IMG/VR virus record: IMGVR_UViG_3300045921_000463 | Span: 16,457-80,456 of that record | Origin: a virus | DNA: 64,000 nt | Direction: 5' to 3' (one strand) | Shown: in pieces, positions 263-63,819 of the stretch | Layout of the letters: the number at the start of each line of letters is the position of its first letter | How positions within the stretch are numbered: position 1 is the stretch's first letter | Program-made: the position numbers and the translations under genes | Notes under the pieces: generated by a model | Told to the model about the DNA's origin: nothing | Databases searched by the model: none | Seen by the model: only the letters and a program-made list of their open reading frames with translations

Positions 263-285
263 TAACCGGTTATAGCAGAACCGTA

Positions 286-1422
286 TCAGGCCGCATCTTT
301 TTCGGCTTTGACGATCTTTGCAGTAATCCGCTTCTGCTTGGTGGCGGAAGCCACGTGTTCTTCGGCCCACGCCATGATGATTCGAGCAAGGGCTTCTGCA
401 TCCGATTCGACGCCGTAGAGCTTCTTGGCTTCTGCAAGCGCCAACTGCACAGCAGTTGCGTTTTCCTCGACCAGCTTGAAGTTGAGCGTGATCGTCTTGA
501 TCGCATTGCGACCGCCAGTGCGCTGCGCAACAGCACCGCTAGGAGTCCTGCCCGATTCGTCAACGTACTTGGTGACGAGAGAGGTCTTGAGTTCCTCGCG
601 CGTCATGTTGCGGGCATCCTCAATGAGGTTTTCATAGTTGTCCTCGGTCACGTAACGCTGAATTTCACGGACCTTGGACCAGCCGATGTCGGACAGCTTG
701 GACGGATCGAAGTTAGGGATCGCTGCAAACGTGGCGTACATCCGCGCAAGGTCGCCGCCTTTCGCTCCGCTGAAACCGAATTCGGCTTGGCAGAAGTCGT
801 CCCACGCCGTTTCGCCTTCGTACTGGCCGCCATTCTCCTTGAGGTAGATGCCCTCGCGTTTGATGCGAGCCAGCAGACCACCGAGGTAGAAGAACGACTG
901 CTCGATCTTGCCGAAGGTTGTCTCGGCAGCGGCGAGAAGATCGCCATTCGCCTGCTGGATGATGTCTTCCAGTTCGCCAACCGAAGGAATCGGCAGATAG
1001 TTGTCGTTCGCTTCTGCAAGCGCACGGCCCGTCAAAGCCTGCACTTCCTGAACGGCAAGTTCCTGACCGTCGATGTTTTCATCGTCGGGATTTTCGAGGA
1101 ACGCCACATAATCGGCAGCCCGGATGCACTCGTACTTCGGAGGCGAATCCTCGGTAGCCTCGTGCACTGCAACGATGACGAGAGTATCGCCTTTCTCGAA
1201 AATGCGATCCTCGTCCGGCGTTTCGTTGACATAGCCGGTAAACTTGACAAAGGTGTTTGCCGGAAGAATGACGATTTCCGAAACCTCTTTTGAAGTTTTT
1301 TCTTTCGCCGCAGTCGCTTTCTTGGCGCGCTGCTTGGTGGCGGTGTCGGAGGCAGCTTTTTCCTTGCTGCCAGCTTTACGAGTGGTGTCCTTGGGAATGA
1401 CCTTGGGTTTGCGTGTTGCCAT
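286..1422 (-). CDS. Hypothetical, probably DNA-binding protein (DUF3102-like middle, RHH-like C-terminus)
   Basis: 378-aa ORF with Lys/Ala-rich N-tail; LGGLLARIK..WDDFCQAEFGFS..ARMY pattern; AAGGA SD and strong promoter upstream. Confidence 0.6.
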   Translation of the reverse strand: MATRKPKVIPKDTTRKAGSKEKAASDTATKQRAKKATAAKEKTSKEVSEIVILPANTFVKFTGYVNETPDEDRIFEKGDTLVIVAVHEATEDSPPKYECIRAADYVAFLENPDDENIDGQELAVQEVQALTGRALAEANDNYLPIPSVGELEDIIQQANGDLLAAAETTFGKIEQSFFYLGGLLARIKREGIYLKENGGQYEGETAWDDFCQAEFGFSGAKGGDLARMYATFAAIPNFDPSKLSDIGWSKVREIQRYVTEDNYENLIEDARNMTREELKTSLVTKYVDESGRTPSGAVAQRTGGRNAIKTITLNFKLVEENATAVQLALAEAKKLYGVESDAEALARIIMAWAEEHVASATKQKRITAKIVKAEKDAA

Positions 1423-1471
1423 TTCCGTATCCTTTCGCGGTATAGGCAGCGGTTAGCAGGTAGTGGCCGTG

Positions 1472-1499
1472 AGTATATGAATCGGTATCTTGTTGTCAA
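1472..1499 (-). promoter_or_regulatory. Sigma70-type promoter
   Basis: TTGACA-N16-TATACT upstream of the gene starting at 1422. Confidence 0.7.
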
Positions 1500-2197
1500 G
1501 CGAATTGCGCAGCTTTGTCGAGAAAAGTGAAATCCCTTGGATTGGTTCGGCGAAAATCGACCGAGAGCTTCTCCCCGCGAACAAAAGCCGCGCAAAGTCT
1601 GGCTGCGTGAAAGGCGTCGGCTTCATCGTCATTTTTGGTTGTAAAGCCAAACCGCTGTGCAGCAAGGATTTTTAGCTGCTTTCCATTATAGCCGCGAGGA
1701 ACGCGACCGTATCCTGTCGCGGCCTTGATAAGACCGTTTGGACTAACGGTCATGTAGGGAATTCTTAAACCATTACGCAAACTTCGCTTGACGATACCGA
1801 CAAGTTCTGCCCGAACAAGAATCTTGCCTGCGAATCGCCCGACGGGGCCATAGTCTTCGATACAAGCGGCTATAACGGGGTATTGCGGATTGGAAAGGTC
1901 GGCAACGATGGTATCCACTACCGAATCTATACGACTTGTGTCGGCAGTATTTTTGGATGTGGTCGTTATGTGATAGTGAAAATCAGGATGACTTTCGTCC
2001 GGTTTCAAGGACATGAGATACACGCCAGTAGAGGTAAGGGATATGTCCAGCCCTACGACATAGGGATAATCTTTTTCGAGCGCCGCCCGAAACAACTTGT
2101 CACAACTGAGCATCTTGCTGTCCTTGTATCCTTTACGCCTTTGCATACCCTGTGCGGCAGCAGCCCGTTTTCTATACCAGCAACAACAGACCTGCAA
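1496..2197 (-). CDS. RuvC-like Holliday junction resolvase (true start probably internal, MLSCDK)
   Basis: VVGLDISLTSTG, CIED and NDDEADA acidic RNase H-fold motifs. Confidence 0.75.
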   Translation of the reverse strand: MQVCCCWYRKRAAAAQGMQRRKGYKDSKMLSCDKLFRAALEKDYPYVVGLDISLTSTGVYLMSLKPDESHPDFHYHITTTSKNTADTSRIDSVVDTIVADLSNPQYPVIAACIEDYGPVGRFAGKILVRAELVGIVKRSLRNGLRIPYMTVSPNGLIKAATGYGRVPRGYNGKQLKILAAQRFGFTTKNDDEADAFHAARLCAAFVRGEKLSVDFRRTNPRDFTFLDKAAQFA

Positions 2198-2943
2198 CGC
2201 TCTATTAAAGGCTGTATTCTTTTGGCTGGAAGGACCGCAGCTTCCAGTTCCTTGAACGGCAATTCGCTGTACATTCTTGAAACACTGCGGTCGATATATA
2301 TGAACCTTACAAAATCGGCAGCATCGTAGCCGAGCTTTTTCAGAATGTAATAGTATAAGCTTGCCTGAACATGGTGATCGCCAAGAGGTGCTTTCATGTC
2401 GGAAAAAACAATATCCTGACGATCTATGGTCTTTATTTCATAAATGATGATCTTGCCGTTGTCCATGCGAAACAACAAATCAGGATGCCCCACGAGTCTT
2501 ATATCTTCTACGCGAAGATCGACTTCACGATAACACATGTTGCTTTTTTCAGCGCCGCATTTTTCGCAGGCTGCCGGTCTGTAGCAAAAACTGTACCTAT
2601 GCCCACACTTCTGACATTCCCAATCACCCCATACAAGATGACCGTATTCGACCGACGTTTCCATGAATCTCTTTATGACTACATGATCGCCTATCAGGTT
2701 TCCAGTATCCCAGAGCAGTCGCATCTTGGGGGGTACCGTACCTGTCGGAGCTACTCTGCGCTCAAAGTACCTCAGCACAAACTCCCTTGCACAGAACTTG
2801 TCCGCCGTTCCGTTTTTCAGAAGATCGGAAACATGGACATAAGGCATACCCCTGCCGGTGTTGTTTGTTCTTCCGTATACAACAGTGGGAGCATTCAACA
2901 AGGCAGCAACCGAACCTAGCGGCAGTTCATTGACCGGCATCAT
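2053..2943 (-). CDS. PD-(D/E)XK / Cas4-like exonuclease
   Basis: GHPDLL..YEIKT..QASLY motifs; N-terminal Cys plus C-terminal Cys cluster; internal CxxC pairs. Confidence 0.75.
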   Translation of the reverse strand: MMPVNELPLGSVAALLNAPTVVYGRTNNTGRGMPYVHVSDLLKNGTADKFCAREFVLRYFERRVAPTGTVPPKMRLLWDTGNLIGDHVVIKRFMETSVEYGHLVWGDWECQKCGHRYSFCYRPAACEKCGAEKSNMCYREVDLRVEDIRLVGHPDLLFRMDNGKIIIYEIKTIDRQDIVFSDMKAPLGDHHVQASLYYYILKKLGYDAADFVRFIYIDRSVSRMYSELPFKELEAAVLPAKRIQPLIERCRSVVAGIENGLLPHRVCKGVKDTRTARCSVVTSCFGRRSKKIIPMS

Positions 2944-3304: not shown

Positions 3305-4467
3305 TCCAAATTCCAGCGGCGGCGGTAGGCGTCTACGATATTGCTAATAACGCGGTTATAGACGGTCTGGTTTTCGATTGCCCATTCGGTAAGCTGCCCT
3401 GAGCCTCTGAATTTGGTCGAAACGCCGTCAATGCTAAAAGCCGATGGGGAGCCGTGAATTACTCCTACCTTGAGCCCCGAGCTTACAACTGCCTTTGCTT
3501 GATCTACCCAACCCTCTAGCATACCGCTGTGTGGTGCACGAACAAGTCTGAACATGCCCTCTCTCAAGGGACCGCCTGTCTTGTTTTTTGTAATCTTGAT
3601 CATATGTTCGTTATACAAAACGATGTCGTCGCCAACATCGTCCTTTCCGAAATGCTCCTTGTTCTTGATTTCGAGTTGCTGCGACATGAAAAACTCGATT
3701 GCCTTGCCACCCGGCAATGTTCTTGGGTCTCCAAACACAAGGCCGATTTTCATTCGAAACTGATTCAAGCACATATGGTGCACAAGATGATCACGCTTTC
3801 GTTCAGAAAGCAGTGCGTTCTGTGCCTTTCGCACATATTTGCCGATAAGCCTTGCCTGCAAGCCCATGAATTCCTGCATTGCGCTTTCTTCGATTTCCTT
3901 CATGGGAACGAGCGCCGCGATGGAATCCGTGACAACCATTGAAACTTCCTTGGCGCGGATCACACCATCACATATGTCGATTGCGTGTTCGCCGGATTCT
4001 GGTTCTGCAATAACTATACGAGAAAGATCGCACCCGAGTTTGCGTGCCCATGCCTTATCGAAAGTTCCCTCGGCATCTATAATTACAACAGCACTGTCTG
4101 GGTATTTGCGTTGAACACTTGCAATGCACAGACATGCCGTGGTTGACTTACCGGCGGAACGCTCGCCATAGACCATTGAGGCACGGCCCATGCTGAATCC
4201 GCCACCCAAGGTCAGATCAAGCGCAAGCACGCCTGTTTCGAGACGTGGTGCTGTGAATTTCTTTGAATTCGCAATATGGAACGCTTCGCCGTAATCACCG
4301 GAATCCGTTATCTTTCGAACAAGTATTGCAAGTTCGGAGTCTGGTTTCTGCAAAATGGTTTCCGTCGGTATTTCTCGTTTCTTTACACGAGAGCTTGACA
4401 CGGCAGAGGGGGCATCGCTGCCCCCTCCTGAATTCGCGGACATTGTATTTCGCCGCTTTATTGCCAT
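3301..4467 (-). CDS. recA: RecA/UvsX-like recombinase
   Basis: TGVLALDLTLGGG, Walker A GERSAGKST, IDAEG, DSIAALVP, NQFRMKIG..GDP..PGG. Confidence 0.93.
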   Translation of the reverse strand: MAIKRRNTMSANSGGGSDAPSAVSSSRVKKREIPTETILQKPDSELAILVRKITDSGDYGEAFHIANSKKFTAPRLETGVLALDLTLGGGFSMGRASMVYGERSAGKSTTACLCIASVQRKYPDSAVVIIDAEGTFDKAWARKLGCDLSRIVIAEPESGEHAIDICDGVIRAKEVSMVVTDSIAALVPMKEIEESAMQEFMGLQARLIGKYVRKAQNALLSERKRDHLVHHMCLNQFRMKIGLVFGDPRTLPGGKAIEFFMSQQLEIKNKEHFGKDDVGDDIVLYNEHMIKITKNKTGGPLREGMFRLVRAPHSGMLEGWVDQAKAVVSSGLKVGVIHGSPSAFSIDGVSTKFRGSGQLTEWAIENQTVYNRVISNIVDAYRRRWNLE

Positions 4468-4473
4468 AACAGG

Positions 4474-5352
4474 TTATTCCTCGCTGGCTTCTTCCTGAAA
4501 TTTCAGAATGGCATTGATGTAGGCTGTTTTCTTTGCCTTAAGGTCAGCGCCCTTTTTCATGGTAACTTCGACTTCCCACGCTTCGGCAATTTCTTGAAGT
4601 TCGGAAAGTTTCATCCCCTTAAGTTCTTCCTCGGTGTAAGGCTCGTCTTGCTCGTCGTCGGACTCGTCGTCGGATTCCTCATCTTCGGATTCCTCATCTT
4701 CGGATTCCTCATCTTCGGATTCCTCGTCTTCGGATTCCTCATCTTCGGATTCCTCGTCTTCGGACTCGTCGTCTTCGAACAACGCCGCGAGAACAGCTTC
4801 TCGCAGTTCCTTGATGCCAAGTTTCGAGTCCACATCAAGATCGTATTCCTTGATGAGTGCACGAAGTTCCGGCGCTTTCATTGCGGCAACGTCATCGTAG
4901 GTGAGTTCGTCCGACTCTTCGGATTCCTCGGAATCGTCCGATTCGTCGGCATCTTCGGCATGGGCCTTTGCCTTGGTTTCTTCCAGTTTCTTGCCAAAGT
5001 CGGTTTCGATTTCGGCTTTCCCCTCATCGGGATCGGAATAGGAATCGAAAACAGAACCGGCAACCGAAGTGATGCGAGCCGTCAACCAATCGCTGATCGC
5101 AGCGTCGAGTTTGGTCTTGTATTCGTCTGCCTGATCAACAGGAACGTTATGAAATTCCTGTCCGACAGACACAAAAACCTCGTCTCCGACTTCGGAACGC
5201 TGTTTTACCGACACGGTTTGCTTGATCACCGTGAAAACCGGCACGGTAGCCTTGTCGTTCGTAATGGTCATTTGCGCATCACCCTCACTGGTCTTTTGAA
5301 TTTGGGGCGGTCGCCCTGCTTTCCTGATAGCCATTGTGCTGTAGTCTCCCAT
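4474..5352 (-). CDS. Highly acidic protein with two Rho-N/HeH-like helical motifs
   Basis: MKAPELRALIKEYDL and MKLSELQEIAEAWEV motifs flank an (EDEES)n tract. Confidence 0.65.
   Translation of the reverse strand: MGDYSTMAIRKAGRPPQIQKTSEGDAQMTITNDKATVPVFTVIKQTVSVKQRSEVGDEVFVSVGQEFHNVPVDQADEYKTKLDAAISDWLTARITSVAGSVFDSYSDPDEGKAEIETDFGKKLEETKAKAHAEDADESDDSEESEESDELTYDDVAAMKAPELRALIKEYDLDVDSKLGIKELREAVLAALFEDDESEDEESEDEESEDEESEDEESEDEESEDEESDDESDDEQDEPYTEEELKGMKLSELQEIAEAWEVEVTMKKGADLKAKKTAYINAILKFQEEASEE
4670..4767. repeat. 15-bp tandem repeat (about 6 copies) encoding EDEES
   Basis: TCGGATTCCTCRTCT repeated. Confidence 0.9.
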
Positions 5353-7563: not shown

Positions 7564-7624
7564 TTACAGCCTTCGAAGATTGCAGCGGCGCACATACGCC
7601 GCTGCTGTAACGCTGTTATAGGGC

Positions 7625-9660: not shown

Positions 9661-9672
9661 CCATATAACGGG

Positions 9673-10314
9673 TTATAGCATGTTGGGGAAGTGTTTTGCG
9701 AGTTCCTTGCGTATCGCTTCTGCAACTTCGACATGTTCAAGCTGCGTACCGTTTCCCTCTCGAACTTCAAGATAATGTATCCACGAGCGCAAGCTTCCTG
9801 CCATGTAAAGGCGGCTCATGGTCAATCCTTCTGGAAGTATTGTACGAGCAGTTTCCTTTGCTACATCTAACCTGAGCGCATTGGAATAAACAAAATCAAC
9901 ATAACGAACAAGTATCGAAACAAGGATTTTCCACAGACGTTTTTTCCATTTCGGAAGATCATCTATGCTGTTTTGCCTGTTTTTGTGATCCTGTCGTCTT
10001 ATGTTTCGTTCACAGAACGTGGTTGCGGACGCATACCGCTGGGAGAACTCCTGAAACGAAAAACTTCTGTGTCTCAGTATCTGTCGCGCTATGTCGCGCG
10101 GACATTCTATTTCTACAACAGCGTGAACCATTTCGAAAGGGGACCAGTGCCCTTCTTTCACAAGGTAATCGAGCAGTTTTCCGCCAGTGTGATGGTGGTT
10201 TTGATTCTTTGGGTTGGAAACGCGAGCACAATACGCAACAAGAGCTTCCGGCTCCGGCGGAATACCGGAAGATTCAAGCGGCATGGTAACTGCTACAACG
10301 CGAACCCTTGTCAT
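9673..10314 (-). CDS. thyX: Flavin-dependent thymidylate synthase
   Basis: HWSPFE and RHRSFSFQEFSQRY ThyX motif. Confidence 0.96.
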   Translation of the reverse strand: MTRVRVVAVTMPLESSGIPPEPEALVAYCARVSNPKNQNHHHTGGKLLDYLVKEGHWSPFEMVHAVVEIECPRDIARQILRHRSFSFQEFSQRYASATTFCERNIRRQDHKNRQNSIDDLPKWKKRLWKILVSILVRYVDFVYSNALRLDVAKETARTILPEGLTMSRLYMAGSLRSWIHYLEVREGNGTQLEHVEVAEAIRKELAKHFPNML

Positions 10315-10856
10315 TGATCGCTTCTTTTGATCCTGATCTTGCGACTGACAACAGATGGAGTCTTTGCAGAAACCGTTTTGTCGAGGGAACGCCGCGTCTT
10401 GCGCTTTATGTCGGTAGCCTGCGGAACCACGATGAACTCGTCATTTGAGTTCTCAAGATCGAGTTCCTTGATGCGGATGTTGTAGTTGTCGCCCTTGACC
10501 GGCGTTTCCAATAACAGGGTTACATCGGAACCGAGAATATTGGTAACGTCAGTCTTGCTGACGCGAATGCAGCGAAGGAACTGGTCTTCCGTGATTTCGC
10601 CGCCTTTCAACTTGGCGTACAGATCGGCAGGGTTGATGATGCTCGACTCCGCTGCATCGTAGGTAATCTCGTGACCGTTGGTGCGTATGGTTGTACCAAG
10701 CGTCCATTCGTTGGACTGAATCCTGTTCTTGAAGATGTTGCGAATTTCCGTGGAAAGACGATTGAAAGCGTTGGTGTGCTCCTTTTTCAGGCTATGCTGT
10801 TCAAGAAGCTTTACGAGAGCGGTTTTCAATTCGTTCGGAAGGGGCAACCTTGGCAT
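10311..10856 (-). CDS. Hypothetical protein
   Basis: 181-aa ORF, GGAG SD, coupled to thyX. Confidence 0.6.
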   Translation of the reverse strand: MPRLPLPNELKTALVKLLEQHSLKKEHTNAFNRLSTEIRNIFKNRIQSNEWTLGTTIRTNGHEITYDAAESSIINPADLYAKLKGGEITEDQFLRCIRVSKTDVTNILGSDVTLLLETPVKGDNYNIRIKELDLENSNDEFIVVPQATDIKRKTRRSLDKTVSAKTPSVVSRKIRIKRSDQ

Positions 10857-13800
10857 TGCAACGCTCCATGGGTTTTGTAGTGGTTTTATTGTATCGAGAA
10901 TTACTACTGTTGTAAAGTTTTTTCGTCGATAGTGCTGCTAGCTTTTCTTCAACCTCGCGCATTTTTGCAATAGTCTTTTCGTCCTGTGAATTTATATCTC
11001 TTAATTTTTTAAGCTCATCATTAAGAATGTGTCTGATTATATCCGTGTAAGTCCTGTTGCCGGACTCTACAGAGAAGTACTTTGGTTTTACTTCGTAGGT
11101 TTCGGCGAGGTTTCTGCCGATTTCGGCGTCAGCTACAATAGGAACGGTAGGCTTCCATCCGAACCACTTTTCGAGCGGCAGATTTTCCATTGTTTTCTTG
11201 ACAAGCCGCATCGTTTTGGCGGCATACTCTTCCTTGGCAATACAGATGATGGAATCGTGGATGAATCCGCATATCTTGATGTGCTCCCACAACCCTGTAT
11301 TGCGCAGATAGGGAACAAGAAGACCGATTGCCATGAGCCCAAGATCGGAAGCAAAGCTCTGCACTGGCGAGTTGATGCCCTGACGTATTGCCTGCTTCGC
11401 AATGGCCTCGTCGGAACTGTCAACCATCGGAAGATGTCGTATGCGTCCGTTGAAGGCCCGCACATATTTGTGCTTCTTTACCCATTGCTCGACGCGGCTA
11501 TGCCATTCTGCAAGGCGGGGATACGTCTCAAAGAACATTTCTCTAAGAGATGCCGCTTCCTCGTCCGTAAAGTCGATACCGTAATCGGTTTTGGCGTATT
11601 CGCGGAATTTTTTCCACCACATGCCGTATAAAAACCCGAAATTGACGCTGTTTCCAGAGATGGTGACACGTCCGTTTCGTCTGACAACAACATAGGAGGA
11701 CGGCACAGTGACACAGTATACTGTCTGATTGTCAGCAGTCGATACGGACCAGTTATTGCGCTTGAACGGATTACGCTCATTGCTTCTGAAAGAAACCTTG
11801 AATGTCTTGTTTGAGCAAGAAACGAGATTGCTTGTTCTGTTGGACAACGTACAGACAATCTGCACAAAATTGGCGTTCTTCCTTTTAGAAGACGAATAGA
11901 AACACAAGCTTCGTGACGACTTTTTGTAACTATGCCCATCCCAACGGGGCAACTCGTCGAGAAAGGCTTCCTTATCTATTACCGACAGTAGCGACACATC
12001 AAAAGTCTTGTCCGGCATGTATGCCATTATACGCTTTGCGACAGAATCCTTTTTCGGCAAGTAAAAGAAAGTTACTGCCTTTTTGTCAGAATCGAAAAAC
12101 ACACTGGTAGAGTAATCGACTCCAGCGGCGTCGAGCAGTTCACGGCATCTGTTTATTTTACGTTGCTTTGAAAAACCCAAACGGATTGCTCCATTGTTTT
12201 GGTAGCTTCCGTCAGCCTGAACCATTACAAGCAATCTGGTAAACAAGGGATCAGCATCAGTTGAATCTGGATAGTAACCTGCATGGCAGCTTAGTACGCT
12301 GCCAGCCGTATCGTTGTAGGTAAGGTCTTCCGCAGCACGCTCATACGGCATCTTTGTGTACCGACTGAACAAGAGCAGCCTGTGGTTTGGGGTTACGGCA
12401 AGATCGGTACTCTTGTCTTGTATGATTACTACTTTCTGATTTTCGTAGCGATGAAAAGCCAACGGCTTTACAAAGCTGATCACGCCGCTTTCCCACTGCG
12501 CAACTTCAACATCCTGCGGCAACCTGTCGAACCTGACAAATCCTGAGGTTGTCAGGATTTCCGTATCGCCAGTGTAGCATTTTGATTGGAATCTTTTGAG
12601 GTCTTGAACCTCTTTTGAAAGCTTCAAGAATTCTTCAACAGATATGCCCATGATACCCGCCGCAGTCGAGCGGTGAATGTCGCCGCCTTCCTGATAGACC
12701 TGCATCATACGTTCGTCGCCGCTGATCATTGCTGCGATTCGCAACTCGGCCTGCGAAAGGTCAAGCTGAATGTAGACATGGCCTTCCGGGGCTTGAAACG
12801 CCTTTCTGAAAGTCTTTGCCATTTTCCCGCGCTTGGGAAAATTCTGACCATTGGGCGAATCTGAGCAACTACGACCTGTAGTCGTCTTGTGAAGAGAATA
12901 AGAAGGTCTGATACGCCCGTCATAGATGTACTTGTAGAAGCCCGAAATGTATGTATTCAGCATTTTCTGGTTCTTGATGTAGTCAGTAAGCCGCGCAATG
13001 AACGGATGGTCAGCAACATAGTAGGGAAGCGCCGTCTTTGACGAAACGGACGGCTTGCCGGTCTTGGTGTACTGCATTGGCTTCAAGCGCAGACCGTCGG
13101 GATGGTTGTAAAGGTAATCGACAAGGATTGCGTCACGATCAGGTTGCAGACCTACGCCTGTGTCTTTGTGAATGGACTTGATACTTACTGGAATCTGCGA
13201 AAGCAGCCATTCCTTTTCCTTCTCTTGGATGCCTCGCAAGTATTGCTCGAACTCTCTTAGGGCATCCACGTTTATGTAAAAGCCGGTCTGCTCCATGTAG
13301 CAGAAGGCGCGAATAGCGCGCATTACAGTCTTGCGATAGCAAGCCCAAAGTCTCTTGTCGCGCCGCAGTTTCGGCAATAACGTGTTATAGAGACGCAAGG
13401 CAGCGTCTGTATCGCCGCATCCGTAAGCTATCATCTTGTACGGCGGAACAAGGTCCATGCGCGTCTTGGACTGATGCACGGGGTCTTTGTTGAACTCGTC
13501 CGCATACCCCGCCATGGCAGGGACATGAAGTCTTGCAAGATCGTCTAGACTCTTGGAAAGGAGGTTTTCATCAATAAGGTGCGCCATCAGGATGGTATCG
13601 GCATGATAATTGGCAATCTGTATGCCGAGCTTGTAATGAAGCATCAGCCAGTCAAATTTCAGGTTATGGCCGATGACCTTTACTTTCGTATTCTCAAGCA
13701 GCCGTTTCAGTTGGGCAACTATTTTCGGTCTGTAGGTTTCATAGCCGCCCGGAAAGTCGATCACGTTGTGAAAGCGCAGATCGCCTGCATCATAATCTAC

Positions 13801-18248: not shown

Positions 18249-18304
18249 ATTTCATGTTTTTGATTGGCGCGCGATCCAGCAGTGCCTTACCGTTTATAAC
18301 AATG

Positions 18305-19618: not shown

Positions 19619-19671
19619 GCTTAGGCTCCGTAGTCGGCTTTTATTATAACCCGTTTATAACAACCGAACAA

Positions 19672-22300: not shown

Positions 22301-22332
22301 GTATTCTCCTTGCTTGTAACACGGTTATAGAC

Positions 22333-48219: not shown

Positions 48220-49554
48220 TTAGCGCCCGAAGATAACGGAGCCGAACTCGTCAGCCACCTTTTTGGATATATTATCCTTCCTGTCGTTGAAAGACGTTGC
48301 GTCCTCGTCCTTCGACAAGTCAGAGGTAGGAACCGACTTCGATATTTGCCTGCGAGCAGCAATCCTGTCAACCACTTTTGCAAGCTGTTCGACGGAATCT
48401 GCGACAGGCGTGATGTACTTCCTTACAACTTCCTCGATGTCAGGCTGCGCAATAACCCGGTTATTGGCGGTATCGGGCATGGTCCGTTCGGCGGACTTTT
48501 CTGCAACAAAACCGTCTTCGATGAGCGCCATGCCGAAGCCGGTTGCCCATTTCTGCAACGATTCGAAGGTTTCCGGCGTCGTATGTTTCATGACTTCTTC
48601 GGGTTCCGATTCAACAAAGGACTCAAAAAGAGCATTCTGTGCAAGGACGAGGGAAACGACAGATTCCGCATCCTTGCGAAGCTGCGATTCAAGATCGTCG
48701 CCGCCTGCATTGAGAGATTTGCGGACTGCCTGAGTAAACGTCCACATCACTTCCTCGAACCCCGGCACCGCCCCGCCTTTCATTCCGGCCTTTAGAAGTT
48801 TGGCGAACGAGGTATCGTTTTGCTCGATCCATATTTCATAGTGGTCGAACTTGCGAATGGCAGGCGTGTTCGACTTTCGCAGATTTTCGAGAAACACTGC
48901 CCTCTTGGAAAGCGCCACAGGCATTTCGGCAGCAATGGAATCGCTTTGTTTGGACACGGAAATTGCATTCTCCTTGGCGCTGACCTCGGTTTCTTCCTTG
49001 TCGTTTGCTTCTTCTGCGACGTGATTTTCCGAAGCGTCTTCGGAATCGTTCTCCGAACCGTCCTCGGAATTTGCAGCCTTGACGAAATAGGCACCGACTT
49101 CGGCGATGACCCCATCCTCTCCGGTGTCGATTTCATCTTTTCTGACAAATTCGACACCCTCTGCATCCTTGTTGAGGACAGTGATTACAGTATCGCCGTC
49201 AACGAATTCCATTTCGCCTTCAAAATCCGAGTTTTCCATGAAATTCCTTACGTCCTCGACAGAAGCGAAATGCTCCTTTTCGAAGACGAACTTTGTAATC
49301 ATGGTTTCCCGCTTGTTGGCAACTTCCTCGACGTATTTGCGTTTCTGGGAAGTGTTGACTGCCTTGTTGGATTTCTGTGCAGCCTGCTTTTCGGGGGCCG
49401 TGTTCCGGCGCTTGATATTCATCTGGATGTCCTCTTGCTTGACAACGACGAAGGGCGAACCTGTTGCACCTCTGTTTACAACCGAAACAAACGAGGGTGT
49501 CGCATCGACAAGGGCCGTGACCTTGCGTCGATACGTTTTTTTGACAGGTTTCAT
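48220..49554 (-). CDS. Scaffold-like protein with N-terminal protease-type motif
   Basis: LVDATPSFVSVVNRGA at the N-terminus, acidic and helical remainder, directly upstream of the capsid gene. Confidence 0.6.
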   Translation of the reverse strand: MKPVKKTYRRKVTALVDATPSFVSVVNRGATGSPFVVVKQEDIQMNIKRRNTAPEKQAAQKSNKAVNTSQKRKYVEEVANKRETMITKFVFEKEHFASVEDVRNFMENSDFEGEMEFVDGDTVITVLNKDAEGVEFVRKDEIDTGEDGVIAEVGAYFVKAANSEDGSENDSEDASENHVAEEANDKEETEVSAKENAISVSKQSDSIAAEMPVALSKRAVFLENLRKSNTPAIRKFDHYEIWIEQNDTSFAKLLKAGMKGGAVPGFEEVMWTFTQAVRKSLNAGGDDLESQLRKDAESVVSLVLAQNALFESFVESEPEEVMKHTTPETFESLQKWATGFGMALIEDGFVAEKSAERTMPDTANNRVIAQPDIEEVVRKYITPVADSVEQLAKVVDRIAARRQISKSVPTSDLSKDEDATSFNDRKDNISKKVADEFGSVIFGR

Positions 49555-50194: not shown

Positions 50195-50217
50195 CTGAAT
50201 ACCTCTCTGTAACCGCG

Positions 50218-52021: not shown

Positions 52022-52510
52022 TCATTTGCGGTGCTGCGGCAAACGCTTCAATGCTCTTGTCGGTTTTATCTGTTTTCTCGGCTCTGATAGAAGTTCCATC
52101 GAACCTTTTTTTCTGAAACTGCGCGCAAGTTCCGGCATGTCCCACAGAAATATCTGTCGGTAGATGAGCGGCAACCCGCTATTCAGCGCCTCGATTTGTT
52201 CCAGCATTTTGCGTGAGTAAAGATGCCGCACAAGTCCGTTGTAATCCGGGTCGGAAAGCGGAGATACTCCGCAACCACGCCACATGATGCTGCACAAGAA
52301 ATACAGAAACAACTTGTGGTCGAGTCTCATTGTCTGAAAGCTGTTGCCGCTTTTTGCTTCCGCGACCATGTTCAAAAGATCAAGAGCCGAAACGCTATGG
52401 CAATAACGTGTTATAGCACATATGAACCTATGCCGCATTGCTCTGCGCCAACAATCGCCGTAAAGGGCGTCCATTTGTTCTTCCGGTGTCAGCCGCTTGC
52501 GCAATTTCAT
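52022..52510 (-). CDS. Hypothetical protein (start MKLRKR)
   Basis: AGGAG SD; coupled to the upstream gene; LSDPDYN motif. Confidence 0.55.
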   Translation of the reverse strand: MKLRKRLTPEEQMDALYGDCWRRAMRHRFICAITRYCHSVSALDLLNMVAEAKSGNSFQTMRLDHKLFLYFLCSIMWRGCGVSPLSDPDYNGLVRHLYSRKMLEQIEALNSGLPLIYRQIFLWDMPELARSFRKKGSMELLSEPRKQIKPTRALKRLPQHRK

Positions 52511-53799: not shown

Positions 53800-55827
53800 T
53801 CAAGCAGATTTATGCCTACTTGCAGATCTTCGAACAATTTTTTTTCGTAGCGTTCGCCGATGTATGCTTTCCTTGCCTTCCTGTTTCTTGAGCTCCATCA
53901 ACTCGATGTTTTCGTGCAAGGTACGACGCCCGTGCAGCATGTAGCCACCTTGTCCAACGAAAATCGGTTGCTGAGTCCAAGCTGCGCGTCTTGTCATAAG
54001 GTATGAGGCAACACCGCATACCGCATCGGCAATATCCTTGCTTCCTCCATTAGGGCGATGATCAATTTTTTCCTTGCTTCCGGCGCGAACATACTCAAGC
54101 TCTACCAGTTCCTTCATCAGATAATTATGGCGAGGCATGAATATACGACCATCGTTTATTGCATCACGAAAGGCAACATAGGGTTGCGGATTTCTGTCAA
54201 CCGAAAGATAGTCGGTTGCGTACCCCTTTTTTGCGAGAATCTGTCTGAAATCTACGGAGTTGAAACCGTCGGTAGTGACGATCTTGATAGGAAGTCCGTA
54301 TTTTTCCTTCAAATCGTATATGATCTGACGGATCATGGAAAAATCTATTTCGCCGTTGGGCGGAGGAACAATTCTTAGAACAACGTCGAAGGCAATGACG
54401 GGGAGCACTTCTGTTACTGTCTGGCCGGTTTCGAAATTTGTCCTGGTGCAGGTCTTGGTACCCGCGACATGCCCTATGGCAAGACCAGCCGCGTCCCTGC
54501 TTACGGCAAGGTCAACATGCGCTACTCGCATCTGTTTTACATCGGTACGAAGATTGGCTTCGATAACACTTGGTTTCGTGACGTGAAGATCGACTTCTTC
54601 GATGTTGTGAAGAAGCCTGTATCCGTACTGCTCCGCAAGTGACATGCAGTTGTAGATCGCTTCCCGATTCCGCAAAAACGGTCTGGTAGCCAGCGTGGTT
54701 CGACCAGCAAGGTCTCTGATCGAGCCGTCAACATCCTTGATGAATTCCGAACGGAAATCTTCCGGCACCTCTATGACTTCCATATCCGGCGGCGCAGTCT
54801 CGTTTTCGTTCAGTATACGAGACTTGTGCCGTTCGTTACCGACAAGAACGCGAAAGCTCTTGGGGCTGTACTTGTCTCTGCCTCTCGATTCCCATAGAGA
54901 CTTGGAAAACACGTAAATCTGCGGATCGGGTCCGCCCTGAGACGCTGCTTCTGCCGCTTTGATTTCCGTGAAGTCGTCAGGGTATCGTGAAGACGACACC
55001 AGAAAAAGGATACCGGGAAGTTTTCCGCGCGACATGAAACGGGAACGACGACGTTTTGAAAGATTCAGGTAAAGGTTTTTTGCCTGATCGTATTCGCCCG
55101 ATGTGTCTGCGTGTTCGTTCTTCGACTTGGCAACTTTTTGCATGAAGTTCATTTCGTCGAGCAAGCCGCCGATCACGTTCAGCGAGATTGCACCCGTGTC
55201 CGATGAAGACACTGGCATGACGGTAACGCGCTGCTCCCGAAACACCATTTCGGAAGTTATGCGCTTGTCATAAGGATACACCTTTGTGAAGTACGGCGAA
55301 TTGGAGATATAGGCCCCCATTTCCTGAAAAACGGCTTTCTTTGCCGTGCTGAGCCGAACCGACTGTATTGTAAAAACAATGGACGAATTCCTCTGCACGC
55401 CAAATGTGGCCTGCGGGTGCCTCAAACACGAAATCAGATAAAGCTGTCTCAGTATCCCAAGATTGGCGATAGTCGATTTGCCTGAACCGATACCGCCCTT
55501 GATCACAGCCTCTACGTAATTTCCGTTGTCAAGTTCGTGCAACGCTTCCGTTACCCCCGGAAAAAGTTCCGAAGGTCGAAGCCCGAGATACATCGAGCCA
55601 TAAAGAAACTCGTCCAGAGGGACAGGTGTACGGCGATATTTCGTAAGCTCGATCAACCTTTCGAAATCGCCATCCTTTCTGACCTGCTCGATTGCACGTC
55701 GAAGCTGATCGGTAATCGACGGGTCGTTCAATTGATCCAGTTCCTGCTGTAACCGGGTTATAGCTTCGTTTATTTCTACCTGCCGAAACGCTTCTAAAGA
55801 CGGCGGGAGCGTTTTTCTGGCAGGCAT
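53800..55827 (-). CDS. terL: Terminase large subunit
   Basis: Walker A GGIGSGKS, Walker B GLLDE, LVSS coupling motif, nuclease HVDLA..D and SKDIADAV. Confidence 0.9.
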   Translation of the reverse strand: MPARKTLPPSLEAFRQVEINEAITRLQQELDQLNDPSITDQLRRAIEQVRKDGDFERLIELTKYRRTPVPLDEFLYGSMYLGLRPSELFPGVTEALHELDNGNYVEAVIKGGIGSGKSTIANLGILRQLYLISCLRHPQATFGVQRNSSIVFTIQSVRLSTAKKAVFQEMGAYISNSPYFTKVYPYDKRITSEMVFREQRVTVMPVSSSDTGAISLNVIGGLLDEMNFMQKVAKSKNEHADTSGEYDQAKNLYLNLSKRRRSRFMSRGKLPGILFLVSSSRYPDDFTEIKAAEAASQGGPDPQIYVFSKSLWESRGRDKYSPKSFRVLVGNERHKSRILNENETAPPDMEVIEVPEDFRSEFIKDVDGSIRDLAGRTTLATRPFLRNREAIYNCMSLAEQYGYRLLHNIEEVDLHVTKPSVIEANLRTDVKQMRVAHVDLAVSRDAAGLAIGHVAGTKTCTRTNFETGQTVTEVLPVIAFDVVLRIVPPPNGEIDFSMIRQIIYDLKEKYGLPIKIVTTDGFNSVDFRQILAKKGYATDYLSVDRNPQPYVAFRDAINDGRIFMPRHNYLMKELVELEYVRAGSKEKIDHRPNGGSKDIADAVCGVASYLMTRRAAWTQQPIFVGQGGYMLHGRRTLHENIELMELKKQEGKESIHRRTLRKKIVRRSASRHKSA

Positions 55828-55828: not shown

Positions 55829-56494
55829 TCATGGCTCCTGCGATTGCATCAACTGAAATATTGCGTTTGTCAGTGCCGCACGCTTTTCCTCGTCATGCTG
55901 AATGTTCTGCACACCGTCTCTTATTTCATGGTCGGGAACCGCACCGACACCGGCAGCGGTGTTGAGCGTCTTGCCCATGCGCAGACGCGCGTACTTTTCT
56001 ATAAGTTCGCCAAGTACCTGTACTTCCTTGTGCGTAGTGTTGAACAGTTTGCCGATGTTGCGTTCGCTGGCAAAATCAATCGAAATTCTGACCTTTTGCA
56101 GCGCAATCAGCTTGGCGAGTTCGGTTTCGGATGTCAGTATGGCAGCATTTCCGTCGAAAAGATGATCGTATGCCACGATACCGTCGGACTGGTTAGGGTC
56201 CATAAGCTTGCAAAGTTCCGGGTGCGCACGACGGAACATCGAAAGATACGCGATGGCAGTCTTGCGGTTTATCTGAAACTCGCCGCGCTCTATGAAAAAA
56301 TCGGCAATGTCGGAATTGCTTGTCCCAAGACGCATCATTGCGATGATGGTCGGATACTGGCTGTGATTCATGATGAAGTTGGTAGCAACAATGGTTTGCC
56401 TCTCGTAGGCCGTAAGAACACGCCCTTCGGTCTTGTTTGCCCCGACAGGCTTGGGAATTATGCGTCGGCGGCGGGTGTTCGGTCTGTTGCTCAT
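55829..56494 (-). CDS. Putative terminase small subunit
   Basis: Helical 221-aa ORF immediately upstream of terL; positional inference. Confidence 0.45.
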   Translation of the reverse strand: MSNRPNTRRRRIIPKPVGANKTEGRVLTAYERQTIVATNFIMNHSQYPTIIAMMRLGTSNSDIADFFIERGEFQINRKTAIAYLSMFRRAHPELCKLMDPNQSDGIVAYDHLFDGNAAILTSETELAKLIALQKVRISIDFASERNIGKLFNTTHKEVQVLGELIEKYARLRMGKTLNTAAGVGAVPDHEIRDGVQNIQHDEEKRAALTNAIFQLMQSQEP

Positions 56495-57330
56495 TTACCC
56501 GCTGGCCTTTTGCGAACGACCTTCTTGTTTACAGCCTTGAGCTTTACTCCCGCACCGATTTCCCTTGCAGCGTCTGCTATGATCTTCTGCATGAATGACT
56601 GCATGGACTGTCCGGTAGAATCCAGACGATCACGCAACGCTGTTAACAGACTGTCTGTTGCGTCGTCGATCTGAACATAGTGGTGATTTTTTCCGCCGAA
56701 ACTGAAAACAAGGTACCCGGTTTCGGCTTCGCTGCCTTGTTCCTTGAAAATCTTGTGCAGGATCGAGCTCAGATCGTCTACGGATTTGATCTTTTCCTTT
56801 GCTTTTGCAAGAACCGCTTTCTGTTTGGGAGTCAGGGATTTTTCGATACCTTCGTAAACTGCCTCGAATTCCTTTTTCTCGGTGAAACCAAGCATGGTCT
56901 GCAACAGTTTCGGGTCGTACTTTCTTGCCAACTCTGTATATAGCTTGGTAAATTTCTGGGTATTCATCTGGCCGTGGACGATATTCCGCTTGACCAGCGC
57001 GATCTTTTGCTTGTCCTCGTCCCAGCTTTCCTTGATGACTGCGGGTACGTCAGCCATGCCAGCTACGCGCGCAGCCTTTACCCGATGGTGGCCGCTGGCA
57101 ATCAGATATTTTCCCTCGTCTCTGGGATGCGGAATGACGATGATCGGTTCGTCGAAGCCGCTTTCCTGTATCTCCTGAACAAGAATGTCGAACTTGTCCT
57201 CTTTCATCTCGTTAGGATTAAGCTCGTCCATTACGAGAAGTTCGAGAGGGATGTCGAACACTTGAAGCTTGCTTTGCTTCAAGTTTTCCTTGTCAGGTTT
57301 GCCAGCGGGTCGAGTAGTGAGCTTTTTCAT
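56491..57330 (-). CDS. ParB/Srx N-terminal domain protein
   Basis: NPNEM..L..EIQESGFDEPIIV..IASGHHRVKAA. Confidence 0.85.
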   Translation of the reverse strand: MKKLTTRPAGKPDKENLKQSKLQVFDIPLELLVMDELNPNEMKEDKFDILVQEIQESGFDEPIIVIPHPRDEGKYLIASGHHRVKAARVAGMADVPAVIKESWDEDKQKIALVKRNIVHGQMNTQKFTKLYTELARKYDPKLLQTMLGFTEKKEFEAVYEGIEKSLTPKQKAVLAKAKEKIKSVDDLSSILHKIFKEQGSEAETGYLVFSFGGKNHHYVQIDDATDSLLTALRDRLDSTGQSMQSFMQKIIADAAREIGAGVKLKAVNKKVVRKRPAGK

Positions 57331-58871: not shown

Positions 58872-58892
58872 GAATCACCCGCTATAACAGCG

Positions 58893-59276
58893 TTATTGTA
58901 TCGGAAAGACGATTGTCGTTTTCCTCGAAAATGCAGCATCGTTGAGTGCCACGACAATATACGGATTCTCGCCGCACCAGAATACCACGAGCACATCGCA
59001 CGAGTCGATGATCGTGCGGTTGCGTGCCATGAACGCCTTTTCGTGTCCGAGCGTCTTGATTTTCGGTATTACCTTTTCGAAGTCCATGCCGTGTCGGTTT
59101 GCATAATCTATCGCAAACGTCTCCGGCCCCCGACCGCCGCCGGAAATGATGACGGCGTTCTTTCCGCGATCAGGACACATTCCCATGATGGCACGTGTAA
59201 GACACGAATCCACATACTCCCTGTCCTCGAATACGCTTCCGTTTCTGCTTCTGCTCGTGATGATGCCGAATTTCAT
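58893..59276 (-). CDS. SLOG (YspA-like) protein
   Basis: IISGGGRGPE, RNRTIIDSCDVLVVFW. Confidence 0.75.
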   Translation of the reverse strand: MKFGIITSRSRNGSVFEDREYVDSCLTRAIMGMCPDRGKNAVIISGGGRGPETFAIDYANRHGMDFEKVIPKIKTLGHEKAFMARNRTIIDSCDVLVVFWCGENPYIVVALNDAAFSRKTTIVFPIQ

Positions 59277-59880: not shown

Positions 59881-60234
59881 CTTCGCAGATTTGCATATGG
59901 AAAGATATGCTTTTACGACAGCGTACGCAAGCGAAGTATCGGTAACTGCTGCACAAAACGACTTTCTGCTCGCCGGATAATTCTTCCAGTCGAGAACTTC
60001 TGTAAAAGACAGAAAGACACGAAAACAACGATGGTGCGGATAATTCGCCTGCAACGTTTCAACACGAGCATCGAACCGCAGGCATACAGCCTCCATGATG
60101 TTCACGTCATTTACATGAGACACACCAAGTTTTCGTCCGATCAAAAGCATCAGTTTTGTGGAATCTGTTTCCAGAAGATCGAAAGCATCGTCGATTTCGG
60201 ACTTGCGTCTGAAACGAAGTTTGCGGACAGCCAT
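59866..60234 (-). CDS. Hypothetical protein (start MAVRKL)
   Basis: Fills the gap; ATG directly follows a palindrome copy. Confidence 0.5.
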   Translation of the reverse strand: MAVRKLRFRRKSEIDDAFDLLETDSTKLMLLIGRKLGVSHVNDVNIMEAVCLRFDARVETLQANYPHHRCFRVFLSFTEVLDWKNYPASRKSFCAAVTDTSLAYAVVKAYLSICKSAKRWIT

Positions 60235-60342
60235 TATAACCCCGTTATAGACAAGCAAAACGACCGGCACAACAGACGGTCGCCACGCAGCGTTCGTGCA
60301 ATACGCGAGGTCATGCCGAGTTTGATTAGTCAATAGATAGCA

Positions 60343-62035: not shown

Positions 62036-62077
62036 TAAGATACCGCTTCTATAACCAAGTTATAGTTCTTTACGTTT

Positions 62078-62548: not shown

Positions 62549-62908
62549 CTAGACGAATTGCGGCAGGCAAACGCAGAGTGTATCCCCGGCGCCGTGTTGC
62601 AATATGAGGCAAGCGATTTCCCCGCGCGGCATATCGCGCAAATGCGCAATGTCGAGCAGATAATCCGGAATCGAGCAATTATTGGCTTGAATAAAACCGT
62701 CCGTGAAGGGCGGAATATCGGGGGCGTGGACGTAAAAGGCACGCGCGAGATAGGTGTTTTTGATGATTTCCGGCAAAGAATGCGCGATTTCGATATTGAA
62801 GACGTTAGCCGCAATCGCGCGAATCGCGGAATCGGTTTCCGCGATATGTTCGGGCGCGGTGGAAAAAAAGAGGAAGTTGCAAGTAAGGCCGGGCGGATAG
62901 TTGCGCAT
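62549..62908 (-). CDS. Hypothetical protein
   Basis: Co-oriented with neighbours; natural amino-acid composition. Confidence 0.5.
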   Translation of the reverse strand: MRNYPPGLTCNFLFFSTAPEHIAETDSAIRAIAANVFNIEIAHSLPEIIKNTYLARAFYVHAPDIPPFTDGFIQANNCSIPDYLLDIAHLRDMPRGEIACLILQHGAGDTLCVCLPQFV

Positions 62909-62982
62909 GACGGGATTCCGTGGTTAGAGGTTGAAAATGAATCGCGCGCGGGGTTAGCCCGCGCGCGACGATTGCGATTAGA

Positions 62983-63693
62983 TTAGACCGGCTTGCGAGT
63001 GCCGAGATAACGCGAGTCGGCCCGCGCGCGATCCGTGGCGTGCAGGCGGTTCCCGTTATCGGAAACGGCGAGAAACCCCGCTTTGACGAGACGATTGATG
63101 GCGCCCGCGTCCGTGGCTTTCGCCGAACCCGAGTAGTAGGGATTCCGGCGCTTGCCGCTGCCCGCATCGGTGCCCGCCGCATGGATTTCCGCGAGGGTCG
63201 CGGAATCCCCGCGCGGCCGCATGACGGAACCGAAGAAATAGAGGAAAGCAGAGTCGCGATCGCTGAAAGTGCCGAAATTGGTGCGGCAGGCCGCGACCGT
63301 GTCGGCATCCCGAGTCGCCGTGCGGTAGGTGATTGCTTCCGCCGCCGCCGCTTCCGCCGCCGCCGCCGCTTCCGCCGCTTTCGCCGCCGCCGCTTCCGCC
63401 GCTTCCGCCGCTTCCGCCGCTTCCGCCGCTTTCGTGGCTTTGATTGCCGCCGCTTCCGCTTCCGCCGCTTCCGCTTCCGCCGCCGCCGCTTCCGCCGCCG
63501 CTTCCGCCGCTTTCGCCGCCGCTTCCGCCGCTTCCGGCGCTTTCGCCGCCGCTTCCGCCGCTTTCGCCGCCGCTTCCGCCGCAATTTGATCGGATTCGAT
63601 AGCGGAGTCGGCAGCTTGGATCGCGGCCCGGCGCGATTCCGCTTTCGATGGAACCGCTTTAGCGCGCGGCTTGCGCTTAGAGTCGTTAAGCAT
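62983..63693 (-). CDS. Ala/Glu-rich helical linker protein with C-terminal wHTH-like domain
   Basis: About 80-aa A/E/K tract; TLAEIH..GAINRLVKAGFL..L..T; promoter upstream. Confidence 0.65.
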   Translation of the reverse strand: MLNDSKRKPRAKAVPSKAESRRAAIQAADSAIESDQIAAEAAAKAAEAAAKAPEAAEAAAKAAEAAAEAAAAEAEAAEAEAAAIKATKAAEAAEAAEAAEAAAAKAAEAAAAAEAAAAEAITYRTATRDADTVAACRTNFGTFSDRDSAFLYFFGSVMRPRGDSATLAEIHAAGTDAGSGKRRNPYYSGSAKATDAGAINRLVKAGFLAVSDNGNRLHATDRARADSRYLGTRKPV

Positions 63694-63759
63694 GAGAGCC
63701 CCCGATTAGGCTAAGGTTAAGGTTAGGCGAGCCGGGAAGTGAGCCCCGGCACGCAAGGC

Positions 63760-63790
63760 ATTATATAGGGCGCGCCGCGCCGCGATGCAA
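63760..63790 (-). promoter_or_regulatory. Sigma70-type promoter
   Basis: TTGCAT then TATATAAT at 17-19 bp spacing. Confidence 0.55.
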
Positions 63791-63819
63791 GCGAGTTGTG
63801 CGCTATAACCGGTTATAAG

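Follow-up and report, generated by a model that had tools for sequence, protein, structure and literature searches.

The window analysed here is a 64,000-nt stretch of a phage genome, bases 16457–80456 of the single-contig virus record IMGVR_UViG_3300045921_000463, which totals 80,456 bp and originates from hot-spring and microbial-mat metagenomes. We observed that a short palindrome, TAAC-N2/3-GTTA, recurs along this chromosome about once in every 2 kb, far more often and far more evenly than by chance, and that comparable lattices of palindromes occur throughout a clade of related phages. We favour, with modest confidence, the explanation that the palindromes serve a flexible, phage-encoded dimer as docking sites on duplex DNA, with a 378-aa protein as its likeliest reader, and that the reach of this system is the whole chromosome.

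The pattern TAAC-N2/3-GTTA was present 28 times in the window, whereas 100 dinucleotide-preserving shuffles gave a mean of 0.94 copies and a maximum of 4. These are exactly the 28 positions listed in an initial annotation of the window, made from the sequence alone. Its estimate of about two chance copies was somewhat too high, but the enrichment that it reported is real. The whole 80,456-bp genome contains 35 exact copies. From the aligned copies, the full element reads (C/t)(T/a)(A/g)TAAC-N2/3-GTTAT(A/t)G on the plus strand, and the alignment showed no conserved letters outside these 16–17 bp. Two extended palindromes, at 63803–63818 and 24277–24292, are as described earlier. A weight matrix built from the palindrome copies detected 41 sites in the genome at a cut of at least 14 bits (0.6 in shuffles) and 39 at a cut of at least 16 bits (zero in shuffles). 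It also recovered the one-mismatch copies of the initial annotation, at 1870–1885, 19644–19660, 27046–27061, 38241–38256 and 39952–39967. Spacers of 2 and 3 bp, both of which had been reported as tolerated, are equally frequent (20/20 at the 14-bit cut and 20/18 at the 16-bit cut), and one site has a spacer of 1. Essentially all genes of the phage are carried by the minus strand. A megablast search with 20 kb of its sequence against a phage collection gave no match, and neither did a single-protein scan of viral contigs.

The sites are spaced regularly. The coefficient of variation (CV) of the gaps was 0.47 as compared to 0.98 under random placement (0 of 20,000 simulations were so low), and the largest gap was 5,035 bp against an expected 8,591 bp (P = 0.005); close pairs and long site-free stretches are both scarce. 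A null model that preserved the split between junctions and coding DNA gave a CV of 1.08, and no simulation reached the observed value. The 35 exact copies divide into 20 in non-coding DNA or at gene junctions and 15 inside open reading frames (ORFs), including those of polA, dnaB, recA, tail genes and terL. The intragenic copies far exceed the 2.5 ± 1.3 (maximum 6) found in 300 shuffles that kept each protein and the codon usage. Regular spacing and enrichment over codon-preserving shuffles, two of the checks proposed with the initial annotation, are thus both evident. In the 41-site set, 22 sites (54%) are at junctions, whereas 10% was expected; such a preference is to be expected in any case, because non-coding DNA is free to change.

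This placement bears on the possibility that the elements function in the mRNA, as processing sites, as signals for translational coupling or as terminator-like hairpins. The TAA of six genome copies is the stop codon of the upstream gene, one copy has the next ATG at its edge, and the abundance at junctions also speaks for such a role. However, the distance from a site to the next start codon varies from 0 to 236 nt, and therefore the element is not a translation signal. In addition, 15–19 copies lie deep inside ORFs, the A·C mismatches that are found in the mRNA sense would break RNA pairing, the arms do not covary, a T-run is absent, and the TGCAA sites of the relatives hold no stop codon. 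Taken together, a function in the mRNA appears highly improbable.

A connection to promoters was not apparent either. Only 4 of the 41 sites were within 60 nt of sigma70-like promoter matches (3.0 expected) with no preferred distance, and we dropped operators at sigma70 promoters as an explanation. A promoter-only function is therefore not borne out by the data. Instead, the enrichment, the spacing, the conservation described below and the lack of a promoter link support the proposal of the initial annotation that selection acts on coverage of the whole molecule and not on the control of a single promoter set. If one site per ~2 kb is selected, the function would require local presence everywhere.

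The longest site-poor stretches are the tape-measure gene and a tail-gene block of high G+C at 28–32 kb. This block (28000–32000) has 59.6% G+C, against ~50% elsewhere, and there is no palindrome between 27061 and 31380. It looks like a host-range module that the phage acquired recently and in which sites have yet to arise.

The nearest cultured phages belong to the Rhodobacter RcF cluster (portal identity 49%). Using a de novo scan for over-represented palindromes, we found a lattice in ten cultured phages of Rhodobacter, Agrobacterium, Rhizobium, Aeromonas, Pseudomonas, Stenotrophomonas and Vibrio, mostly of the form TGCAA-N4-TTGCA, and in six further uncultured contigs. RcTiptonus has ~49 copies of T(G/A)CAATCGATTGCA in 94 kb, Agrobacterium JP1 ~40 copies of TTGCAAACGTTTGCAA in 97 kb, and Rhizobium L338C 24 copies of GTGCAAC-N1/2-GTTGCAC, also with a variable spacer, in 50 kb. 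The motifs of the other cultured phages are TTGCAAC-NN-GTTGCAA (Aeromonas HJ05), GTGCAA-RCGY-TTGCAC (Pseudomonas SM1), TGCAAT-NN-ATTGCA (Stenotrophomonas DLP5), TGCAAT-NN-AYTGCA (RcZahn) and a noisier TAAC-N(2-8)-GTTA (Vibrio VHS1). Among the uncultured contigs, L011 has TTGCAAACGTNTGCAA, L012 has TTGCAC-GATC-GTGCAA, and L013 (33% G+C) has TGCACACGTGTGCA once per 2–3 kb. The contigs closest to the window phage (G153, also numbered L010, together with L014 and L015) have the TATAAC-type motif in common with it. The clade has a common frame TGCA-N6-TGCA, for which the window lineage has TATA-N6/7-TATA. In five other phages tested, the CV of the gaps was 0.50–0.65, each below that of random placement (~1). 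The lattice motif was absent from RcPescado, a Rhodobacter phage outside the clade. In VHS1 (L140, record 20001–70000), this frame is replaced: TAAC-N6-GTTA occurs 12 times, against 0.9 expected, and TAAC-N4-GTTA 8 times; the half-site letters match those of the window phage, but in a geometry other than TGCA-N6-TGCA or that of the window.

Conservation in relatives, another check suggested at the outset, was assessed with G153, a complete 90,183-bp genome with terminal repeats. Its lattice consists of 55 copies (37 N3 and 18 N2) with the same logo as in the window phage. Nine sites are in DNA that is alignable between the two genomes (68% identity), and eight of these have a G153 site at the same position; from this identity, the chance of retaining all eight core letters is arithmetically ~5%. 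The spacer letters differ between the two phages at the position-conserved sites. The arms are under purifying selection and the spacer is not. Some sites are exclusive to one of the two genomes, indicating that there is turnover as well.

The initial annotation had also considered a match to a known host feature. We addressed this with the motif of RcTiptonus, in genomes of the family taken to be that of its host. The 14-mer TGCAATCGATTGCA was present 0 or 1 times per genome in 151 Paracoccus/Rhodobacter-family genomes (seven have one), while RcTiptonus itself has 19 exact copies in 94 kb. As judged from this motif, no match to a host feature was found, and a host signal of the Chi or uptake-sequence type (uptake signal sequence/DNA uptake sequence, USS/DUS) was rejected because the motif is not over-represented in these genomes. 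In bacterial genome contigs scanned for the same motif, scattered single matches were seen among the matches listed. A 95-kb Burkholderiaceae contig assembled from a metagenome (L058) has two exact copies of the 14-mer 3 kb apart, and may be another phage or phagemid of the clade.

Near-absence of the motif from the host family would also suit a Chi-like self-marking system of the phage. A helicase-nuclease of the phage (a 558-aa SF2 helicase and a Cas4-like PD-(D/E)XK exonuclease, with RecA) would then switch from degradation to recombination at the sites, so that phage DNA is spared and motif-free host DNA is destroyed. Even spacing with a capped largest gap would suit such a system, a palindrome would function from either end, and the core genes include those for the helicase, exonuclease, RecA and resolvases, which the gene for the 378-aa protein always follows. 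On the other hand, the Chi sites known so far are short sequences without symmetry that are recognized in single-stranded form, nothing ties these enzymes to the motif, and two arms with a free spacer better fit a helix-turn-helix (HTH) dimer. We consider both the switch and its consequence for host DNA to be very unlikely.

The two arms of the element vary independently of each other. At no position variable in both arms were Watson–Crick combinations commoner than under independence, and in SM1 they were rarer than chance. The predicted free energy of the DNA hairpin is −1.4 kcal/mol at 37°C and −0.3 kcal/mol at 55°C. As the arms are independent and the hairpin energy is negligible, a dimer that recognizes duplex DNA is the probable reader of the sites.

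The element also shows a polarity with respect to the genes. In the sense of the coding strand, the 5′ arm is strict (ATAAC) in the window phage and G153, and the 3′ arm is either GTTAT or GTTAC; the 3′ arm is GTTAC 27 times, and the mirror change in the 5′ arm was seen once. Imperfect pairs are mostly A·C on the coding strand, equivalent to G·T on the template strand, with ratios of 27:11 in the window phage, 39:6 in G153, 24:3 in JP1 and 14:2 in RcZahn. This polarity is not a general requirement, because SM1 and DLP5 lack it and HJ05 shows it in the opposite sense. Avoidance of stop codons was rejected as its cause (6 of 10 GTTAC variants are non-coding), and a mutational bias was judged too weak for a 27:1 ratio.

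The G·T pairs are among the features that would be explained if the elements formed strand-specific hairpins of the template strand on single-stranded or supercoiled DNA, as sites of priming, loading or nicking (by a DnaG-type primase, DnaB, RecA or a resolvase) or as N4-style promoters. In such hairpins the loop length would be free, as with spacers of 2, 3 and in one case 1 (N1/N2 in L338C), and the spacer letters would be unconstrained. Moreover, the ~2 kb spacing resembles the length of Okazaki fragments, and the universally shared genes are mainly those of replication and recombination. However, arm covariation was not found in any phage, the polarity fails in the three phages named above, and the stability is negligible, above all with a stem rich in AT and a phage from hot springs. 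A T7/N4-type RNA polymerase (PF00940) was not found, in a search made without a positive control, and if replication is co-directional, the template strand would serve as the template for the leading strand. We therefore regard the hairpins as unlikely, and retain recognition of the duplex by a dimer as the preferred explanation.

Among the phage proteins, the 378-aa protein is the strongest candidate for the reader. When all ORFs were compared with five relatives by tblastn, it was the only core protein of unknown function, the rest being virion and replication-recombination proteins. Its gene always follows those for RecA, the resolvase, the Cas4-like exonuclease and the RuvC-like protein. 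The family was found in 37 phage records, all of 79–110-kb phages, and in every lattice contig, and a lattice was present in every phage with a homologue that was checked. As predicted by AlphaFold2 (pLDDT 77 for the whole protein and 84 for the domain alone), a Lys/Ala-rich disordered N-terminal tail (residues 1–49) precedes an SH3/Tudor-like barrel (~50–140), a helical domain (~155–290) with a ParB/KorB-type match, a C-terminal helical pair and a basic tail. KPAA-type repeats occur at either end of the homologues.

ParB-family domains bind palindromes of 13–16 bp, with one half-site per subunit. The helical domain matched the ParB DNA-binding domain (DBD) on parS (6s6h) with a Z score of 7.5 and an rmsd of 4.0 over 112 residues, followed by Spo0J (1vz0, Z 7.3), the KorB DBD on its operator (1r71, Z 5.7) and KorB (8qa8, Z 5.0), with weaker matches to SopB (Z 4.1) and VirB (Z 3.9). 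A Z of at least 5 was reached by only 8 of 48,161 chains, all of them of the ParB family or the Rubisco factor Raf1, whereas unrelated chains were at 4.7 or below. The top match in Foldseek was ParB–parS 6t1f (probability 0.92, E 0.68). As the scores are middling, a ParB/KorB-type DNA-binding fold of this predicted domain is likely rather than proven. With this modelled fold, and as the sole non-enzymatic protein of unknown function common to all lattice phages, the 378-aa protein is a credible binder, as the initial annotation had suggested.

Three further observations concern this family. The IGWSK helix is the only strongly conserved stretch across all of its members; the homologue of VHS1 has a helix sequence typical of the TGCA-type phages; and that of the 33% G+C contig (L013:9701-10825) has a long (PET/SET) repeat and a C-terminal segment at its end.

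The docking sites might instead be read by another phage protein, such as a 279-aa ParB_N protein, which we rank second or see as a possible partner, a winged-helix protein (59318–60028) or an unrecognized small regulator. The 279-aa protein has a Pfam ParB_N match (4.5e-12; a CTPase/nuclease-like domain) with GHHR in place of GERR, and its residues 24–183 match the N-terminal halves of ParB/Noc in PDB sequences. Of ten lattice phages searched, the window phage included, eight have a ParB_N protein. In SM1 (L007:44202-46335, gp050–gp051), the homologue of the 378-aa protein is directly followed by a ParB_N-domain protein and then by a second ParB_N match, an arrangement suggestive of cooperation between the two families. 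The winged-helix protein contains a MarR-like HTH. But RcZahn and VHS1 have lattices without a ParB_N protein, no clear or canonical HTH follows the N-domain of the 279-aa protein, and the winged-helix protein is common only with RcTiptonus, so that a different reader of this kind is improbable. A LacI-type reader was likewise rejected. The sites of the relatives resemble LacI/GalR operators (TGNAANCGNTTNCA-like), but PF00356 is absent from the phage genome while being found in 14 of 14 control genomes.

We infer that a protein reads the sites, and the favoured mechanism would be as follows. Each subunit of a flexibly linked dimer, probably of the 378-aa protein, would bind one 7-bp arm. Selection would keep one site per ~2 kb, at junctions where possible and otherwise written into codons, and the reader would thereby reach the entire chromosome. 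The half-site changes by lineage (TGCAA, TGCAC, TATAAC) while the architecture is kept, which fits a co-evolving reader encoded by the phage. Binding may serve to silence or road-block the transcription of a genome read in one direction, as KorB or stoperators do, or to organize the phage chromosome or maintain the phage as an episome; compaction through the basic tails is an equally open option. Two relatives, DLP3 and DLP5, have a temperate life style, the latter as a phagemid (PMC5834331, PMC7326821), which makes whole-genome silencing or episome maintenance plausible.

A more specific and doubtful version of this mechanism is a chromatin-like self-marking, in which a ParB-type reader with histone-like Lys/Ala tails and no CTPase would nucleate at the private palindromes and coat, compact or tether the chromosome. 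The phage DNA would thereby be set apart from that of the host, so that it could be silenced, inherited as an episome or shielded from nucleases. Site and reader would evolve together, as in the switch from TGCAA-N4-TTGCA to TATAAC-N2/3-GTTATA in the window lineage.

Several points weigh against the docking of a phage-encoded dimer as we propose it. A symmetric dimer gives no account of the polarity observed in the window phage, G153, RcTiptonus, JP1, RcZahn and L011, and the equal use of 2- and 3-bp spacers demands an unusually flexible one. The fold matches (Z of at most 7.5; Foldseek E of 0.7) are under the level of safe fold identity. A profile of 17 homologues found no ParB/KorB match among all PDB sequences, the 378-aa protein had no Pfam family match and matched in PHROGs only phrog_17202 (function unknown), and thus no sequence profile in these searches ties it to ParB. 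It has no N-terminal ParB CTPase domain or GERRxRA box, by Pfam ParB_N and by predicted structure, and therefore could not by itself be a sliding clamp of the KorB type. A tentative link between an arginine of the putative recognition helix and G/C in the half-site was rejected, because 14 phages fit but VHS1 fails and phylogeny confounds; shared descent alone makes any phage protein co-vary with the motif. Finally, the phage record is ~85% complete, and the evidence for a temperate lifestyle comes from DLP5 and DLP3 and not from the window phage itself. The suggestion of the initial annotation that this is an undescribed site-and-protein system nevertheless gains support, with a putative protein partner. 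The sites and the candidate proteins are compiled in Table 1.

Table 1. Palindromic sites of the window (no strand assigned) and genes of the two highest-ranked candidate readers
Position	Strand	Feature	Context	Remark
260..275		spacer 2, TTGTAAC-CG-GTTATAG	gene junction	22.2 bits
286..1422	minus	candidate reader, 378 aa		
1870..1885		one-mismatch variant, spacer 2, right arm GGTA	within RuvC-like ORF	17.6 bits
3345..3361		spacer 3	within recA-like ORF 3301-4467	position kept in G153
4464..4479		spacer 2	junction itself	stop TAA of 4474-5352; recA ATG at site edge
7605..7621		spacer 3	junction, SSB-like gene/helicase gene	
9663..9678		spacer 2	junction	TAA is stop of thymidylate-synthase-like ORF
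10509..10525		spacer 3, right arm GTTAC	within small ORF	
13375..13390		spacer 2	within polA-like ORF 10801-14529	position kept in G153
15657..15672		spacer 2	within dnaB-like ORF 14526-15917	
16536..16551		weak variant, TAGC for TAAC, spacer 2		13.7 bits, near noise level
17720..17735		spacer 2	within ORF 17536-18093	
18294..18310		spacer 3	junction	TAA is stop codon
19644..19660		weak variant, TTTA for GTTA, spacer 3		12.1 bits, near noise level
20706..20722		spacer 3, GTAAC-AGC-GTTAC	non-coding	
22314..22330		spacer 3	junction downstream of AAA ATPase gene	
24277..24292		spacer 2, perfect CAATAAC-TG-GTTATTG	non-coding, upstream of AAA ATPase gene	
25518..25533		spacer 2	non-coding	
27046..27061		one-mismatch variant GTTG, spacer 2	within ORF 26987-27658	16.2 bits
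31380..31396		spacer 3	within 1328-aa tail ORF	
32908..32923		spacer 2	within 1328-aa tail ORF	
35205..35220		spacer 2	within ORF 35084-35542	
37276..37292		spacer 3	within ORF 37034-37789	
38241..38256		one-mismatch variant GTTC, spacer 2	within tape-measure ORF	17.0 bits
38457		further weak variant		from weight matrix
39952..39967		weak variant, AAAC for TAAC, spacer 2	within tape-measure ORF	13.9 bits
43276..43292		spacer 3	within small ORF 43099-43308	position kept in G153
46411..46427		spacer 3	within ORF 46129-46773	
48450..48466		spacer 3, perfect CAATAAC-CCG-GTTATTG	within ORF 48220-49554	position kept in G153
50207..50223		spacer 3	junction	TAA is portal gene stop; position kept in G153
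52401..52416		spacer 2	within ORF 52022-52615	
55747..55763		spacer 3	within 5′ end of large-terminase ORF 53800-55827	position kept in G153
56491..57330	minus	ParB_N protein, 279 aa	just upstream of terminase genes	second-rank candidate or possible partner
58882..58898		spacer 3	junction, SLOG-like/glycosyltransferase-like genes	position kept in G153
60234..60250		spacer 3	non-coding	
62049..62065		spacer 3	non-coding, edge of AT-rich repeat region	
63803..63818		spacer 2, CTATAAC-CG-GTTATAA	non-coding	

Other genes of the phage were noted in passing. The ORF at 9673–10314 (213 aa) matches phage thymidylate synthase (phrog_85, 1e-61). The run of genes at 55829–59276, which encodes SLOG-like (YAcAr), 514-aa glycosyltransferase-like, ParB_N and 221-aa proteins and the large terminase, is kept in RcTiptonus and JP1 and may be a packaging-linked module for the modification of DNA or virion. 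In the search for a ParA-type ATPase, PF13614 had no match and PF01656 only a 15.7-bit Walker-A match in this ~85% complete genome. The latter was rejected as ParA, since the 453-aa protein concerned is HerA_C (PF05872, 606 bits). This HerA/FtsK-like NTPase is encoded outside the window on the minus strand (G000:C1:6563-7924; L143:346-1707) and is not present in the cultured relatives.

We found no paper that describes the lattice of this clade. The Rhodobacter phage and DLP3 papers leave palindromes unmentioned, and nothing on them appears in the titles and abstracts of the Samunavirus literature. What the window adds is the TATAAC variant, the variable spacer, the polarity, the test of arm independence and the test of conservation in place. 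If the palindromes are docking sites, a large and widespread clade of 80–110-kb siphophages, to which uncultured phages of hot springs also belong, keeps a private, evenly spaced address system at a cost inside essential genes, and this would be a whole-genome function new to these viruses, be it silencing, organization, episome maintenance or self-recognition. Chromatin-like self-marking, if true, would represent, for tailed phages, a genome-wide cis/trans system of a new class. The cultured relatives, among them candidates for phage therapy and temperate phagemids such as DLP5, make the lattice testable. The window lineage has switched both its half-site (TGCAA to TATAAC) and its spacer rule (fixed N4 frame to N2/3), a natural change of specificity that could help to pinpoint the reader and the residues with which it recognizes the sites.

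Among the known systems, the 17-bp dyads of Cluster O mycobacteriophages (TGTTCGG-N3-CCGAACA; PMC4351075) are alike in description, with >30 copies per ~70-kb siphophage genome, 7-bp arms, free spacer letters, no tie to start codons and a function that is unknown. About two-thirds of them are intergenic or near gene starts and one-third intragenic, and the window phage likewise has >30 copies of a 7-N-7 dyad inside and between genes. The Cluster O dyads differ in sequence and lineage, are reported to be denser at one genome end, have a fixed spacer length and have had no reader proposed.

ParB–parS, Noc–NBS and the centromeres of the plasmid prophage N15 use palindromes of 14–16 bp whose half-sites are read by a ParB-type HTH, and the sites of Noc and N15 are many or dispersed. 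A similarity of the lattice phages to these systems (6s6h, 1vz0, 7ol9) is that the relatives DLP5 and DLP3 are thought to be phagemids. In contrast to them, no ParA-type ATPase was found in the genome, the candidate reader has no CTP-binding domain, and the number and regular spacing of the sites are far beyond those of any known partition system.

KorB and its operator O_B of the IncP-1 plasmid RK2 (PMC11790492) offer another parallel, in which a short palindrome is dispersed over a 60–100-kb mobile replicon, with copies within genes and at places remote from promoters. From the operators at which it is loaded, KorB exerts its effect over as much as 1.5 kb (PMC11790492), a reach comparable with the spacing of the phage lattice. 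The 41 phage sites are similarly dispersed, with ~10% of them within 60 nt of a sigma70-like promoter, and KorB is a reader with a ParB-superfamily HTH, to which the modelled domain of the candidate is similar (1r71 and 8qa8, as above). RK2, however, has 12 O_B sites, whereas the lattice has 35–55 evenly spaced ones with a variable spacer, on a replicon that is a virus. The phage candidate is also without the CTPase N-domain of KorB and without sequence similarity to it, having SH3-like and Lys/Ala-rich parts instead, and no KorA-like partner is known for the lattice.

Stoperators silence a whole prophage by blocking elongation, and are oriented with transcription, many of them in short intergenic gaps. 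Those of Cluster A mycobacteriophages are dozens of asymmetric 13-bp sites read by a monomeric immunity repressor (in part from PMC4351075). The phage sites resemble them in a polarity relative to transcription in the window phage, G153, JP1, RcZahn and RcTiptonus, though not in SM1 and DLP5, where it is absent, or HJ05, where it is reversed; they differ in being two-armed palindromes. By analogy, KorB and the Cluster A stoperators would be the nearest working models for the lattice.

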